A DNA stretch of 64,000 bases from Candidatus Nomurabacteria bacterium. Lineage in GTDB: Bacteria; Patescibacteriota; Minisyncoccia; Phycocordibacterales; UBA9973. Numbering within the stretch: position 1 is the first letter of the stretch; every line of letters starts with the position of its first letter. The notes beneath the pieces are model-generated. The model ran no database searches. It worked only from the letters and a program-made list of their open reading frames with translations, and had not been told where the DNA came from. This document shows, piece after piece, positions 3,948 to 39,447 of the stretch. The stretch spans positions 409,375 to 473,374 of the forward strand of contig CP064958.1 in NCBI GenBank assembly GCA_016699085.1. The letters run 5' to 3'. Both the position numbers and the translations under genes were made by a program.

Positions 3948-4487
3948 ATGGAAACTGTCAAACAAAAAACTGAAAAAGCATACGATGTCATGAAGAAGCA
4001 ATTTGGCTACACTAATGTCATGTCATCTCCTAAGGTTACAAAGATTATCATTGCTTCAGGTACAGGTAGTGGTATCAAGCGCGATAAGAATCGCAATACC
4101 TTTATCATGGAGCGAATCGGCAAAATCTCAGGACAAAAACCTTCAACAAAGCAGGCAAAGAAATCCGTTGCAAGCTTCAAGGTTCGCCAAGGTGATCCTA
4201 TTGGCGTGATGGTGACACTTCGTGGTACTCGAATGCAGGCATTTCTCGATAAGCTTATCAATGTTGCATTGCCTCGAACCAAGGACTTTCGTGGTATTGA
4301 TCAGAAAATTGTTGATTCAATCGGTAACCTCACTATGCCTATCAAAGAACATACTATTTTCCCAGAGACAGCAGACGAAGAGCTCAAGGATGTCTTCGGT
4401 CTTGCGATTACGATCGTAACGACAGCTAAATCTCGCGACGAGGCATTAGAATTTTTCAAACACATCGGCATACCATTTAAAAAATAA
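3948..4487 (+). CDS. rplE: 50S ribosomal protein L5
   Basis: typical L5 sequence, operon order. Confidence 0.9.
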   Translation: METVKQKTEKAYDVMKKQFGYTNVMSSPKVTKIIIASGTGSGIKRDKNRNTFIMERIGKISGQKPSTKQAKKSVASFKVRQGDPIGVMVTLRGTRMQAFLDKLINVALPRTKDFRGIDQKIVDSIGNLTMPIKEHTIFPETADEELKDVFGLAITIVTTAKSRDEALEFFKHIGIPFKK

Positions 4488-5736: not shown

Positions 5737-6270
5737 ATGTCACGAATAGCCAAAAAACCAATAGCAATTCCTCCAGACATCACCATCAAAGTTGATGGCA
5801 GTGTTATTACTGTAACCGGTCCGAAAGGCACTCTAACAAGAACATTTTTACCAACTATTGCTATTACAGTAGAATCAAATGAGCTCATCTTAGTGCCTCA
5901 AAATGATGCTCCAGCTACACGTGCACTTTGGGGGACATATGCATCACATTTGAAAAATATGATTACAGGGGTGACGACACCATTTTCCAAGAAACTTATT
6001 TTAGAAGGCGTTGGCTACAAATCAGAAGTCTCTGGTAAAAATCTTGTCCTAGCGCTGGGCTTCTCACATCCAGTTTCAATGCCAATACCAGAAGGTCTTA
6101 CGGTTACTGCTGAGAAAAACCAGATCACTGTTACAGGCATTGATACTGAATCCGTTGGACAGTTTACAGCCACAATACGTTCACTGAAGAAACCAGAACC
6201 ATATAAAGGAAAAGGATTTCGATATGATGGAGAAGTTATTCGTCGTAAGCAAGGTAAGAAAGCAGCATAG
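5737..6270 (+). CDS. rplF: 50S ribosomal protein L6 (start at MSRIAKKPI, internal to track ORF 5689)
   Basis: SRIAKKPIAIP...VTVTGPKGTL typical L6. Confidence 0.9.
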   Translation: MSRIAKKPIAIPPDITIKVDGSVITVTGPKGTLTRTFLPTIAITVESNELILVPQNDAPATRALWGTYASHLKNMITGVTTPFSKKLILEGVGYKSEVSGKNLVLALGFSHPVSMPIPEGLTVTAEKNQITVTGIDTESVGQFTATIRSLKKPEPYKGKGFRYDGEVIRRKQGKKAA

Positions 6271-20741: not shown

Positions 20742-20770
20742 AATGGCGATTTTCTTTATTGAAGCATATA

Positions 20771-20806
20771 TTTACCAAAAGAAAAACCCGACAATATTGT
20801 CGGGTT
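20771..20806 (-). terminator. terminator for 20815..21195: palindrome aacccgacaat/attgtcgggtt followed (minus strand) by TTTTTCTTTTGG
   Basis: 11-bp stem directly downstream of minus-strand stop. Confidence 0.6.
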
Positions 20807-20814
20807 GGAGTAAA

Positions 20815-21195
20815 TTATTTTGGTTGTTTGTAAGCAACTTTCAGGAGGAGTGCGGTACTTACAGTTTTATTTTCTGGGAAAATGTACCATTCTTCGCCCT
20901 TTGTTTTAATCGTAATTGTCCCGTCATCAGAATATAGGATATTGTCATCCTTAATATTACAGATAAGATCTGCATCATCACCGTCAGACCATATTTTCTC
21001 ATCCCATACTGCGACAATCTGGATATGGAAGAAAAATATGGTATCGCTATTATGTTTGGTCATATCACTGATACACCCTCGCTGTCGTTTTTTTTCAGTT
21101 GAATAAAATTCCACTAATCGCCCAACGAAATTAGTCCTATCCTCTGTATCTTCTATAAAACGCTCTTTATGTTCCATGAAAAATGTTTCTTGCAT
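20815..21195 (-). CDS. hypothetical protein
   Basis: 126-aa ORF, acidic. Confidence 0.35.
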   Translation of the reverse strand: MQETFFMEHKERFIEDTEDRTNFVGRLVEFYSTEKKRQRGCISDMTKHNSDTIFFFHIQIVAVWDEKIWSDGDDADLICNIKDDNILYSDDGTITIKTKGEEWYIFPENKTVSTALLLKVAYKQPK

Positions 21196-28442: not shown

Positions 28443-28478
28443 GCTTCAGTTAATAATTGACTGAAGCTTTTTCTATTG
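28442..28478 (+). terminator. hairpin agcttcagt-taataattg-actgaagct + tttttctatt
   Basis: 9-bp stem after stop at 28442. Confidence 0.55.
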
Positions 28479-28552
28479 TCCGTCCTCTTGGATTCGAACC
28501 AAGGACCCTCGAGGTATAAGCTCGATGCTCTAACCAACTGAGCTAAGGACGG
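28479..28552 (-). tRNA. tRNA-Ile with anticodon UAU (74 nt, no encoded CCA)
   Basis: cloverleaf: acceptor CCGTCCT/AGGACGG, D-arm GCTC-AGTTGGTTA-GAGC, anticodon arm TCGAG-CTTATAC-CTCGA, T-arm CTTGG-TTCGAAT-CCAAG. Confidence 0.8.
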
Positions 28553-37547: not shown

Positions 37548-38066
37548 ATGAAAATAAACATAGTTACAGATTGCACTGGCAACAAACAAGAGGTAATCAG
37601 AAATATATTTTCAGAAATATTTAAAAATGAGGCGATCGTAATATCTCTAAAAAAGGGCGAAAGCTTTGAAACTCCTCTAACACTAGAAGGCTTTCCATTA
37701 ACTGTAAAGAAACGGTTTCAGTGGATAAAGAAGAATATCGATAACCCTGATGTTTATATCGCAACTATCCAAAAGGGTTACTACTATTCTCATGGACTGT
37801 GGTACCTCTGTGCATGTGTGGGAGTTGCATATCCTTTAATGGGTCTTCTTACGGCAATGACATCGAGTGTTCCTGTGGATCAAAATTGTTCTGAGAAAAA
37901 ATCTCTCGACTTGTCCAAAAACATGAGTGATATCATTAAAGAGGAACATCCAGACTGGGATAAAGAAAATGGTTCTGTGTATGAATTATTTACAGCCGAG
38001 AATGAAACACTATGGCTTGAACAACCACTTCGCCACTGCCTCAAGTTTATTACTCATCGTAAGTAG
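37548..38066 (+). CDS. hypothetical protein, weak resemblance to inosine/xanthosine triphosphatase (YjjX/Maf-Ham1-like)
   Basis: N-terminal pattern IVTDCTGNKQEVIRNIFSEIF loosely resembles YjjX VVCATTNPAKIQAIL; low confidence. Confidence 0.25.
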   Translation: MKINIVTDCTGNKQEVIRNIFSEIFKNEAIVISLKKGESFETPLTLEGFPLTVKKRFQWIKKNIDNPDVYIATIQKGYYYSHGLWYLCACVGVAYPLMGLLTAMTSSVPVDQNCSEKKSLDLSKNMSDIIKEEHPDWDKENGSVYELFTAENETLWLEQPLRHCLKFITHRK

Positions 38067-38087: not shown

Positions 38088-38115
38088 AAAAGCCTTATAT
38101 AAGGCTTTTTTTATT
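38088..38115 (+). terminator. palindromic terminator aaagcctta-ta-taaggcttt + T-run
   Basis: after stop at 38066. Confidence 0.65.
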
Positions 38116-38129
38116 TTTCTTTTTTACTT

Positions 38130-38228
38130 GCGGAGGCGGTGAGATTCGCCGATACTGCGGCGGGTACTTTTCGACAAAATTCCTTAGAGTCTTTTGTAAC
38201 GAAAAATCTTTCGAATCTCACACACGAG
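38130..38228 (-). repeat. tRNA-Ser-3'-end-derived element E1 (~99 bp): copy of tRNA acceptor/T-arm 3' 20 nt + long hairpin
   Basis: minus strand ends CGAATCTCACCGCCTCCGC, matching the last 19 nt of tRNA-Ser at 38941 (the tRNA has T one base further 5'); shares blocks GGTACTTTTC / GAAAARTCTTTCGAAYCTCAC with E2. Confidence 0.6.
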
Positions 38229-38342
38229 TATATTAGTAACGTCACTGAATAGGCATGTAAACCAGGCTAGCTTTTGATATTGGGGAAGTTTTTGATTTAG
38301 GTGCATCTTTATTTTTTAAGATAGCACTTACCTGAGGTGATG

Positions 38343-38792
38343 TTACTGGGTGTTCATAAGTACCTGTTGAGCATGCGCAATAAGTTCTCGCATGTTCGTA
38401 GATTGCGTGTATCTTTCCAAAAATTCAGTAATAGGTATTACTTCTCTACTCAGGGCATCCTCGCTCGGAGTAAATTCGCCGAGTTTGAAATCATTTGTTG
38501 TGTAGACTAGCATAACCATATCTTTGTAGTTGCCTTGCGTGTTAGATTCCACAATTGCGAAAAGTCTCGGGTGAGAAAAAGTCGCCCCAGCTTCTTCTTG
38601 TACTTCACGAATGAGAGCTTGTTCAGGTGTCTCACCCTTTTCAATATGTCCACCCGGAATATCCCACCCCCTCTCATTTTCTATTGCAAGAATTTGGGAT
38701 CCATCAATCGCAACTAAAAATACTGCGCTCAGTAATTCCTCTTTTGGAAGGATTGTGTTCTCCTCTATATATGTAACAAAAAATTCTGGCAT
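38343..38792 (-). CDS. NUDIX hydrolase
   Basis: Nudix box GGHIEKGETPEQALIREVQEEAG. Confidence 0.7.
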   Translation of the reverse strand: MPEFFVTYIEENTILPKEELLSAVFLVAIDGSQILAIENERGWDIPGGHIEKGETPEQALIREVQEEAGATFSHPRLFAIVESNTQGNYKDMVMLVYTTNDFKLGEFTPSEDALSREVIPITEFLERYTQSTNMRELIAHAQQVLMNTQ

Positions 38793-38804
38793 ATTCTAAA
38801 AAAT

Positions 38805-38897
38805 GCGGAGGGGGTGAGATTCAGCTACCTACAGAGCCTGGTACTTTTCCACCTTGCTACGCTCGTACGGAAAAGTCTTTCGAACCTCACCCGCATG
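38805..38897 (-). repeat. tRNA-Ser-3'-end-derived element E2 (~93 bp); on the minus strand a long hairpin followed by AUUUUUU, 6 nt before the NUDIX start
   Basis: minus strand ends GAATCTCACCCCCTCCGC + ATTTTTT; internal conserved blocks as E1. Confidence 0.6.
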
Positions 38898-38940
38898 TGA
38901 AGCAGTTCACATGCTCGCCAGCGCTTTCGCGAAGCTCAAG

Positions 38941-39027
38941 CGGAGGCGGTGAGATTCGAACTCACGGACCCGGTAAAGGGTCGACAGTTTAGTAAACTGT
39001 TGATTTAAACCACTCATCCACGCCTCC
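38941..39027 (-). tRNA. class II (long variable arm) Ser-type tRNA with anticodon loop UUACUAA (apparent anticodon ACU)
   Basis: acceptor GGAGGCG/CGCCTCC, discriminator G, D-loop GAGTGGTT, T-arm GTGAG-TTCGAAT-CTCAC, variable arm GACCC..GGGTC; anticodon stem ACAGT/ACTGT. Confidence 0.7.
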
Positions 39028-39130
39028 AATATATTTTTTTTTAACAAGATTCTCCCTCGACTTTCTTTTCGTCGCCACTCAAAGAAGTCTGGTCACCAGC
39101 TCATCCATTTTTTCTGCTGAAAAAATATGA

Positions 39131-39213
39131 TTCCGCTGTTCGAATCTCACACGCAACGTGCGCAGGCACGTTGCTCGTCTCCGCAAAGTTTTTCTCTTCG
39201 CTAAAAGACTTTG
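39131..39213 (+). repeat. plus-oriented tRNA-Ser-3'-like fragment E3 (TTCGAATCTCACAC + 9-bp hairpin GCAACGTGC/GCACGTTGC + CTCGTCTCCGCAAAGT)
   Basis: forms a 14-bp inverted repeat with the real 3' end/flank of tRNA-Ser(GCU). Confidence 0.5.
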
Positions 39214-39298
39214 CGGAGACGGCGAGATTCGAACTCGCGAGGGCTTTCACCCTGCCTCCTTAGCAAGGAGGTACGTTAGACCACTCTGACACGTCTCC
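39214..39298 (-). tRNA. tRNA-Ser (anticodon GCU), 85 nt
   Basis: acceptor GGAGACG/CGTCTCC, anticodon arm CCTCC-TTGCTAA-GGAGG, long variable arm, T-arm GCGAG-TTCGAAT-CTCGC, discriminator G. Confidence 0.85.
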
Positions 39299-39447
39299 AT
39301 ACTATATATAATTGTGAGGTTAATTTAGCATATTATTTCAAGTTTTGAAAACTTGATTTTAATCAATGTTTTATTGCATTCAAGATTGCCAAATATTCTT
39401 TTGACAATACATAAAGTAGATGGTATGTTTCGTGCAACTAAACTTCT

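Follow-up and report, generated by a model that had tools for sequence, protein, structure and literature searches.

What are the three short repeats that accompany two serine tRNA genes and a NUDIX hydrolase gene in a 64-kb stretch of DNA from Candidatus Nomurabacteria bacterium (contig CP064958.1; 64,000 nucleotides, here called the window)? An earlier note, made from the letters of the window alone, had named them E1, E2 and E3 and read them as att-like repeats left by site-specific integration. Comparison with other genomes leads to a different answer. E1, E2 and E3 are copies of a conserved structured element of about 135 nt that trails tRNA genes, mostly in Paceibacteria/Parcubacteria. 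The family appears to be undescribed, and it meets the full definition of none of the known systems with which we compared it.

As the earlier note had stated, all three elements contain the 3'-end sequence of tRNA-Ser, and a repeat finder recovers every repeat described there. Positions 38130-38148 in E1 are identical to the 3' end of tRNA-Ser(ACU) at 38940-38958 (19/19), and positions 38805-38822 in E2 match the same stretch with one or two changes (17/19), both in direct orientation. The finder reports a tRNA 3'-end block four times in direct orientation, the block TTCGAATCTCAC three times, and two further blocks inside E1 and E2 that are common to both (families D3 and D4). The 12-mer GTGAGATTCGAA, allowing at most one mismatch, has five sites in the window, all between 38.2 and 39.3 kb, where 0.47 are expected; none of 100 shuffles reaches five. 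E3 forms an 18-nt inverted repeat (94%, I1) with the 3' end of tRNA-Ser(GCU) and, over 13 nt, a perfect one with the T-arm of tRNA-Ser(ACU) (I3). None of the three is called as a tRNA: ARAGORN and the Rfam tRNA model call only two tRNA-Ser genes in this region, and the anticodon of the second is corrected here to ACU.

The elements are members of a dispersed family, a point on which the earlier note had proposed a check. The blocks of E1 and E2 were turned into a pattern on the tRNA strand, GAAAGAYTTTTC-N15-45-GAAAAGTAC, which was searched in a collection holding one genome per species; genomes other than that of the window were read as 8-kb pieces (loci, numbered L001 and so on), and the abundance and taxonomic range given for the family are lower bounds. 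The pattern matches at least 120 loci, with chance matches estimated at about 17. Among the matches listed, 106 loci carry a whole element and 14 are chance matches outside the candidate phyla radiation (CPR). By title, the 106 true loci are almost all Patescibacteria (Paceibacteria, Nomurabacteria, Vogelbacteria, Lloydbacteria and metagenome-assembled genomes (MAGs) labeled Saccharibacteria), and the 14 bare chance loci come from Bacteroidota, Planctomycetota and others. Viral contigs in IMG/VR gave one lone pattern match. Rfam 15 has no match on E1 or E2 at E<=10 and no credible match on two canonical members in L087; E3 is overlapped there only by a weak sX4 match that covers mainly the tRNA. 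A full-text search of the literature found no description of the element.

What kind of structure is conserved? Read on the tRNA strand, the element begins with a P0 5' arm (7–12 nt), a single A, the hairpin H1, GU, a P1 5' arm (about 9 nt) and GAAAG, and continues with P2, ACC, P3, the P1 3' arm and the P0 3' arm. P0 and P1 together form a two-part outer stem, with H1 branching off its 5' strand and a three-way junction inside. H1 has 9 bp and a loop that is mostly CUGC, P2 has the base ACUUUUC/GAAAAGU and a variable tip, and P3 consists of 6–7 bp closed by a GUA loop. We built a covariance model, R1, from 95 copies and re-aligned 113 copies with it. Standard pairs occupy 84.9% of the pair cells in the 113 copies, compared with 63.6% in column shuffles, and only 35–49% of cells are paired when the structure is slid by 1–3 columns; this alignment is fitted to the model and favors the structure, but an independent MAFFT alignment had already given the same covariation in H1 and P2. 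H1 is 98% paired with double changes at 9/9 pairs, P3 is 87.5% paired, and the one variable P2 pair occurs as GC (41), CG (36), UA (26) and AU (8). G.U exceeds A.C in every helix (251 versus 90 overall; 42 versus 12 in the unambiguous helices H1, P2 and P3), and therefore the tRNA-sense strand is the folding strand.

A subfamily (13 of 85 copies, for example in L029, L059, L073, L095, L106, L109, L116 and L119) is marked by an additional mini-hairpin in the P1 3' strand, G(Y)G-UACU-C(R)C, with a covarying stem and a fixed loop. The mini-hairpin occurs mostly together with one type of P2 tip (GUUCUCUGGUGUUAACCAGAGC) and beside many different tRNAs. A separate insert of about 35 nt lies between H1 and the P1 5' arm in some copies (L056 7372-7504, L064 4169-4335 and L070 64-184), and the one in L056 resembles the T-arm of another tRNA in antisense (GATCCACCAGAATCGAACCG). 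We also compared the conserved junctions by eye with hammerhead, sarcin-ricin and anticodon-loop motifs and found no convincing fit.

The element is tied to the tRNA gene upstream. Of 141 profile matches in the fetched loci, 96 follow a same-strand tRNA gene at a distance of no more than 100 nt, and for another 16 the distance is no more than 350 nt. Every amino-acid family is covered apart from Met (0/4), and Cys reaches 6/6; 96 of the 184 tRNAs in these loci carry an element, the loci having been picked for holding one. The last ~18 nt of the upstream tRNA gene reappear twice in the outer stem, as antisense in the 5' strands of P0 and P1 and as a sense copy in their 3' strands. The mirrored stretch comprises the 3' half of the T-loop, the 3' strands of the T-stem and the acceptor stem, the discriminator and the first bases of the trailer; where CCA is encoded, the 5' arms extend through it. 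The longest exact match between the 3' arm and the tRNA end has a median of 10.5 nt and a mode of 18–19; random reassignment of the tRNAs gives 5 nt. The direct repeat reaches 18 nt or more in only 19 of 84 copies and is degenerate in most. The P0 5' arm pairs with the tRNA 3' strand in 55 of 85 copies and with the element's own 3' arm in 32; for the P1 5' arm the corresponding counts are 76 and 60. In L045 the 5' arm complements the tRNA 3' strand even where the tRNA 5' strand mismatches; the 5' arm is therefore a complement of the former rather than a copy of the 5' acceptor strand. Arm mismatches inside the element are biased toward wobble pairs (G.U 60, A.C 23). One of the anchoring genes is itself unusual: at L052 3834-3907 (+), ARAGORN calls a 'tRNA-Stop' with anticodon UUA, which would read UAA, followed by a normal copy of the element. 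This gene might encode a suppressor tRNA, or it might point to reassignment of a stop codon in the MAG concerned.

In 49 of 85 loci tRNA and element are separated by a hairpin that resembles a terminator and has an A-run and a T-run at its flanks, and there the tRNA 3' end, the hairpin and the 5' arm make up one long palindrome. The spacer is shorter than 22 nt in 18 of 85 loci, which therefore have no room for a terminator between tRNA and element. The majority of copies have no insertion, and partial, tandem and internally deleted copies are common (E3, L012, L045, L095; L107 is a further case of simple tandem or partial copies). Of the 106 downstream genes, 66 are co-directional and 40 convergent. 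A leader or riboswitch controlling the downstream gene was considered and rejected on account of the 40 convergent genes.

How do the three copies in the window fit this description? R1 finds all of them on the minus strand, the strand of both tRNA-Ser genes, in agreement with the earlier note for E1 and E2; E3, which had been taken for an inverted copy, is thus not inverted, and only its 5' arm complements the tRNA end. The block begins with tRNA-Ser(GCU) (39213..39298, minus strand, ARAGORN), whose 3' end CGTCTCCGC pairs with the 5' arm of E3. E3 (39109..39191; R1 40.1 bits, E 6.6e-08, P2 and P3 positions skipped) is an internally deleted copy. It retains the P0 5' arm GCGGAGACG (39184-39176), H1 with its CUGC loop (39174-39153), the P1 5' arm GTGAGATTC (39150-39142), GAA and a remnant GAATC (39133-39129), and has lost P2 and P3. 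In L088 the intact counterpart of this arrangement is preserved, in the order tRNA-Ser(GCU), element, tRNA-Ser(ACU).

The second gene, tRNA-Ser(ACU) (38940..39027, minus strand, ARAGORN; Rfam tRNA 56 bits at 38941-39027), supplies with its last ~19 nt the arm sequence of both E2 and E1. E2 (38798..38931, minus strand; R1 96.6 bits, E 5.5e-22, full length) is complete and begins 16 nt past the tRNA, with a small GNRA hairpin where the terminator would stand. The earlier note had placed E2 at 38805-38897; it runs on to 38924 and takes in the hairpin 38893-38914. Its parts are a degenerate P0 5' arm (38924-38916), H1 (38914-38893), the P1 5' arm GTGAGGTTC (38890-38882), GAAAG (38881-38877), P2 (38876-38869 with 38850-38843), P3 (about 38839-38823), the P1 3' arm GAATCTCAC (38822-38814) and the P0 3' arm CCCCTCCGC (38813-38805). 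The NUDIX gene (38343..38792, minus strand, 149 aa; Pfam PF00293, E 4e-15; its product matching a protein of Ca. Nomurabacteria at 100%) lies between E2 and E1, which bracket it as had been described. E1 (38122..38262, minus strand; R1 61.9 bits, E 2.4e-13, H1 and P0 positions mispaired) has no recognizable P0 5' arm or H1. Its homology to the family starts from CGT and the P1 5' arm GTGAGATTC (38221-38213) and proceeds through GAAAG (38212-38208), P2 and P3 to the P1 3' arm GAATCTCAC (38147-38139) and the P0 3' arm CGCCTCCGC (38138-38130). The window holds tRNA-Ser(GCU) with one decayed unit (E3), and tRNA-Ser(ACU) with the complete E2 followed by a NUDIX unit that ends in E1.

E1 is 90% identical to the element behind tRNA-Ser(ACU) in L058, from another Nomurabacteria genome, where the spacer is 69 nt, and only 72% identical to E2. 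This difference makes it likely that something was inserted between tRNA-Ser(ACU) and E1. The simplest history that these sequences suggest is that E1 would be the original trailer element of tRNA-Ser(ACU), with E2 and the NUDIX gene now in between.

In total, R1 has three copies in the window, and two of its seven tRNAs carry an element; no R1 copy stands behind the other five. A weak match at 20768-20830 (+) (13 bits, E 0.38) covers nothing but a hairpin flanked by A/T and is most likely an ordinary terminator rather than a family member. The only terminator-like hairpin of the minus-strand block comes after E1: a palindrome at 38088..38109 (called by the plus-strand terminator scan; perfect inverted repeat I8), which has an A-run at one flank and a T-run at the opposite one, closes both the tRNA-element-NUDIX-element block and the plus-strand open reading frame (ORF) 37548-38066. 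This 172-aa ORF, which converges on E1, has no Pfam match. A promoter-like site, TTGAAT-16-TAAAAT (39356..39383, minus strand, 9/12 consensus matches), is the sole one upstream of the block, and the scan finds no more sites than in shuffles; the suggestion that the minus-strand block may be one transcript is correspondingly weak. A small plus-strand ORF within E1 and E2 was dismissed: its similarity is limited to positions where the DNA is conserved, and its Shine-Dalgarno-like GGAGG is the complement of the tRNA acceptor.

Several observations concern the tRNA genes themselves. A serine tRNA with A34 is uncommon in bacteria, and it repeats the AGY reading that the GCU tRNA already provides. 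tRNA-Ser(ACU) stands beside tRNA-Ser(GCU) in five other Paceibacteria loci (L051, L072, L086, L088 and L121); in L058 it has no GCU neighbor. Elsewhere in the window, a tRNA-Ile(UAU) gene at 28478-28552 (-) has no trailing element, and the same type is found in L011, L022, L086 and L103.

Are E1 and E2 the scars of an integrase? On this reading they are attL/attR-type fragments of a NUDIX island that entered tRNA-Ser and later lost its integrase. The tRNA-Ser(ACU) 3'-end direct repeats do flank the NUDIX gene, and tRNA 3' ends are standard integration targets. However, the repeats are not scars specific to this locus: they belong to a structured family with a conserved non-tRNA core of ~100 nt, found in more than 100 Patescibacteria genomes and behind more than 100 tRNAs with nothing inserted. 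E1 and E2 represent different sublineages rather than two halves of one event, and inverted arm copies and covarying hairpins are unexpected in a scar. Of the arm features, the antisense 5' arm rather than the direct repeat is preserved best, an outcome that a simple attL/attR model would not predict. The earlier statement that no integrase is present holds for the ORFs listed for 35.0-42.7 kb (two scanned with Pfam, the rest judged by reading their translations), which read as two-component regulators, guaA and small proteins; the bounded segment contains the NUDIX gene only. For the proposed comparison with an intact tRNA-Ser, L058 offers an E1-like element that follows tRNA-Ser(ACU) after 69 nt, and no pair of empty and filled sites was found. 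Among the other NUDIX homologues, the closest are 70% identical and lie in unrelated contexts with no element; the best relatives by guaA are ~60% identical, and this gene led to no close genome. A metagenome scan with an E1-specific 21-mer returned five chance matches, with no element and no tRNA. The family distribution largely refutes the integrase-scar reading, which we regard as very improbable.

Could the elements simply be intrinsic terminators that flank tRNA genes, with E2 attenuating NUDIX, as the earlier note had also proposed? The sequence ATTTTTT (AUUUUUU in the RNA) directly follows E2, 6 nt before the NUDIX start region, with the NUDIX ATG 12 nt downstream of E2. Elements also sit at the 3' ends of transcription units, and the 40 convergent genes are faced by them. 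As a property of the family, however, termination was rejected: a T-rich tail follows only 10 of 111 copies, most copies are already preceded by a separate terminator-like hairpin, and the terminator scan calls none of E1, E2 and E3, with a U-run directly after the stem in E2 only. A terminator also needs neither a conserved three-way junction nor arms matched to a tRNA. We therefore give this explanation very little credence, for E2 as for the family.

What, then, might the element do? We favor, tentatively and with somewhat less than even confidence, a model in which it is a cis-acting trailer RNA that serves as a clamp on 3'-extended tRNA precursors. An RNA role is favored because of the wobble bias of the sense strand, the conserved loops and junctions, the strict co-orientation with the tRNA and the copies that leave no room for a terminator. 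The element would belong to the tRNA transcript and act within its 3' trailer; it would always be transcribed where no terminator intervenes, as in the window, and by read-through elsewhere. Its 5' arms could pair with its own 3' arm, giving a cloverleaf tRNA and a closed element, or with the 3' strand of the pre-tRNA, giving a duplex of 20–40 bp around the trailer hairpin. In minimum-energy predictions, which take no account of co-transcriptional folding, modified bases or the tertiary structure of the tRNA, co-folding pairs the acceptor 3' strand of the tRNA with the element in 78 of 85 loci, and forcing the acceptor stem instead costs a median of 11 kcal/mol; this capture of the acceptor strand suggests that any 3'-extended precursor could switch between the two folds. 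As a tRNA-specific clamp, the element may steer the cutting apart or the decay of tRNA, trailer and downstream mRNA such as that of NUDIX, possibly by way of a double-strand-specific or tRNA-end-specific nuclease and a factor that reads the invariant core. Position and strand fit an RNA derived from a tRNA trailer, which 3' processing would release as a stable RNA.

Besides the simplifications of the folding predictions, several points weigh against the trailer RNA. The nuclease step is pure inference. With 49 copies behind a terminator-like hairpin, transcription from the tRNA promoter may reach many elements only rarely. The match of the 5' arms to the tRNA 3' strand is 92% Watson-Crick with no wobble bias (G.U 29, A.C 21), a pattern more reminiscent of copying at the DNA level or correction of a palindrome than of selection on RNA. 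The base helix of P2 shows no covariation, two of its pairs being strictly invariant and the other five nearly so; this is unusual for an RNA helix and would fit sequence-specific recognition of DNA as well. Elements within one genome resemble each other more (0.56) than those behind the same tRNA type elsewhere (0.49), a comparison of only 18 pairs. Finally, tandem arrays with differing cargo and a shared terminator and 5' arm (L056, L064) look like cassette stacking.

In these arrays, units composed of an optional gene, a terminator-like hairpin and an element are stacked in tandem behind one tRNA, and the cargo is co-oriented in almost every case. L056 has the order tRNA-Gln, terminator, element, a HAD hydrolase with orf200, terminator, element, orf166 with orf200b, terminator, element. 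Its first two elements (4233-4420 and 5740-5925) are near-identical in terminator, arms, P2, P3 and mini-hairpin and differ by a wholesale swap of H1 (loop CUUC versus UGGG), from which H1 appears to behave as an exchangeable module. The third, ~3 kb from tRNA-Gln, carries the arm of a different tRNA-Gln allele. In L064 three elements share terminator and 5' arm and differ in H1, P2 tip and P3; between them lie a NUDIX gene with orf197, and a histidine phosphatase gene with another NUDIX gene. Simpler cases are L113, with tRNA-Ser(GCU), element, ORF168 (a weak match to Imm26) and element, and L081, with tRNA-Trp, ORF162 and element. Distal elements keep the arm of the anchoring tRNA, with exact matches of 15–19 nt at 650–900 nt from it, and in L028 the direct repeat continues 14 nt into the trailer. 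Distal units also keep a stretch resembling a tRNA 3' half to the left of the terminator (L056 5700-5745 and 7290-7325; L113 6740-6765 (-)). In L056 it consists of a T-arm-like hairpin, GGTTC-CGACGTC-GAACC, followed by a stretch like an acceptor 3' strand; the two copies are nearly identical to each other and unlike the real tRNA-Gln.

These arrays invite an explanation at the DNA level. The element could be an attachment site for cassettes, folding as single-stranded DNA and presenting a duplex copy of the tRNA 3' end, at which a recombinase encoded elsewhere inserts, stacks and exchanges units of gene, terminator and element. The system would be integron-like with tRNA genes as its platform, and NUDIX plus E1 would be one unit. 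Co-oriented cargo in L056, L064, L113 and L081, the retained arms of distal elements and the foreign tRNA-Gln allele arm in L056, the extended repeat in L028, the shared segments of terminator and arm, the invariant P2 helix, the wobble-free 5' arms and the displacement of E1 from its tRNA by E2 and NUDIX all fit such a process. Yet no integrase was found in the window block and no recombinase in the cargo arrays L056, L064 and L113, most units have no gene at all, and the antisense arm is better kept than the direct repeat, which is degenerate in most copies. Each tRNA type would need its own matched cassette lineage, the compensatory evolution is long-term and does not resemble recent spread, IMG/VR viral contigs are without the element apart from the lone match, and a filled site with its empty counterpart was not found. 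We consider attachment of DNA cassettes possible but rather doubtful. Similarly doubtful is the wider proposal that Patescibacteria possess a tRNA-anchored gene-cassette system, with the folded module as attachment site and the recombinase elsewhere in the genome; equally uncertain is that it would stack and swap small accessory genes such as those for NUDIX hydrolases, HAD and histidine phosphatases and immunity-like proteins. We know of no integron-like platform described in Patescibacteria.

Whether NUDIX is cargo at all may be questioned, since a 70% homologue lies 3 kb from guaA in L001 and the linkage between NUDIX and guaA may be old. NUDIX homologues also occur in clusters of small nucleotide and phosphate hydrolases (L001 676-5962 and L003 3554-8441) with no element there. 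These clusters hold several NUDIX genes, Exo_endo_phos, HAD and inositol phosphatase, and the one in L001 is beside IMPDH, adenosine deaminase and guaA.

The same palindromes could arise with no function for the cell. The element would then be a selfish or neutral repeat, similar to miniature inverted-repeat transposable elements (MITEs) or repetitive extragenic palindromic (REP) sequences, spreading between tRNA loci where the palindromic, near-universal T-loop sequence (TTCGAA/GATTC) permits template switching or gene conversion, while quasi-palindrome correction would preserve the match between arms and tRNA. P1 indeed ends, on its inner side, in T-loop sequence common to most tRNAs, and the tRNA 3' end, terminator and 5' arm do form one long perfect palindrome. 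Broken and repeated copies (E3, L012, L045, L095) are frequent, only about half of the tRNAs in the loci and two of seven in the window carry an element, and copies in one genome are more alike. Against this, core, loops and structure persist between lineages that have diverged very far, and each helix shows many compensatory changes, which argues for purifying selection on each copy rather than decaying repeats. The wobble bias for one strand and the strict orientation relative to the tRNA are not expected of such a repeat either; no transposase is associated, and the three window copies are only 72% alike, with arms that are tRNA-specific rather than fixed terminal repeats. We consider this explanation unlikely.

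If the favored trailer RNA is correct, it would add a new layer of tRNA precursor handling in minimal-genome organisms whose RNA processing is poorly known; if the element acts as DNA, it would provide a new way to capture accessory genes at tRNA loci without a resident integrase. In either case about half of the tRNA genes in the sampled loci would carry a conserved, sequence-matched partner, a share that is probably overestimated as the loci were chosen for the element. The family accounts for many 'tRNA fragment' repeats in CPR genomes, R1 is a searchable marker for their annotation, and the question can now be tested with metatranscriptomes and strain-resolved metagenomes.

How does the element compare with known systems? 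Displaced tRNA fragments mark the ends of genomic islands (Islander, PMC4383910), and successive integrations leave partial tRNAs in tandem (tycheposons, 10.1101/2020.12.28.424599). The units described here resemble these in having an intact tRNA followed by direct repeats of its 3' end, cargo in between and stacked units. In contrast to island att repeats, the repeat here is one arm of a folded module of ~135 nt with a non-tRNA core and antisense copies. Most units have no cargo, the examined ones have no integrase inside or next to them, the antisense arm is preserved better than the direct repeat, and the core recurs at 106 other loci.

Integron attC sites are about 60–140 nt long, fold on one strand, conserve shape rather than sequence, and occur once per small cargo gene in co-oriented arrays with the recombinase outside the cassette. 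Like attC, the element is an imperfect palindrome able to fold as a single strand, present once per cassette in co-oriented arrays (L056, L064). It differs in having no R''/R' boxes (RYYYAAC...GTTRRRY), its ends being derived from the tRNA (for example GCGGAGACG...CGCCTCCGC), and neither the window block nor the examined arrays showed an intI, attI or Pc. A tRNA gene is the anchor and the source of the arms, the core sequence is strongly conserved, and recombination is only putative here.

REP sequences, bacterial interspersed mosaic elements (BIMEs) and MITEs are small, structured, multi-copy intergenic repeats at the 3' ends of genes, with partial and tandem copies, and the element shares with them its small size, structure, occurrence in several copies, intergenic location at gene 3' ends and partial and tandem forms. 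It departs from them in its strict tie to a tRNA gene and strand, its locus-specific arms and its deep compensatory evolution; terminal inverted repeats with short target duplications were not seen, nor was a link to RAYT or a transposase.

As in tRNA mimics (the Y RNA YrlA, PMC4201824; viral tRNA-like structures; mascRNA), the outer stem copies the acceptor and T-stem, and a hairpin branches off in the place of the D and anticodon arms. Unlike them, the element has a three-way junction instead of a T-loop, its discriminator and trailer bases are paired so that there is no free NCCA end, it has no score in the Rfam tRNA clan, and it mimics specifically the neighboring tRNA.

The 3' external transcribed spacer of leuZ in Escherichia coli (3'ETS-leuZ) is a short, species-specific sponge that pairs with other small RNAs. 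The element resembles it in lying directly 3' of a tRNA on the same strand, from where tRNA 3' processing would release it. It differs from this sponge in being a large covarying fold, present behind many tRNAs, with arms complementary to its own tRNA.

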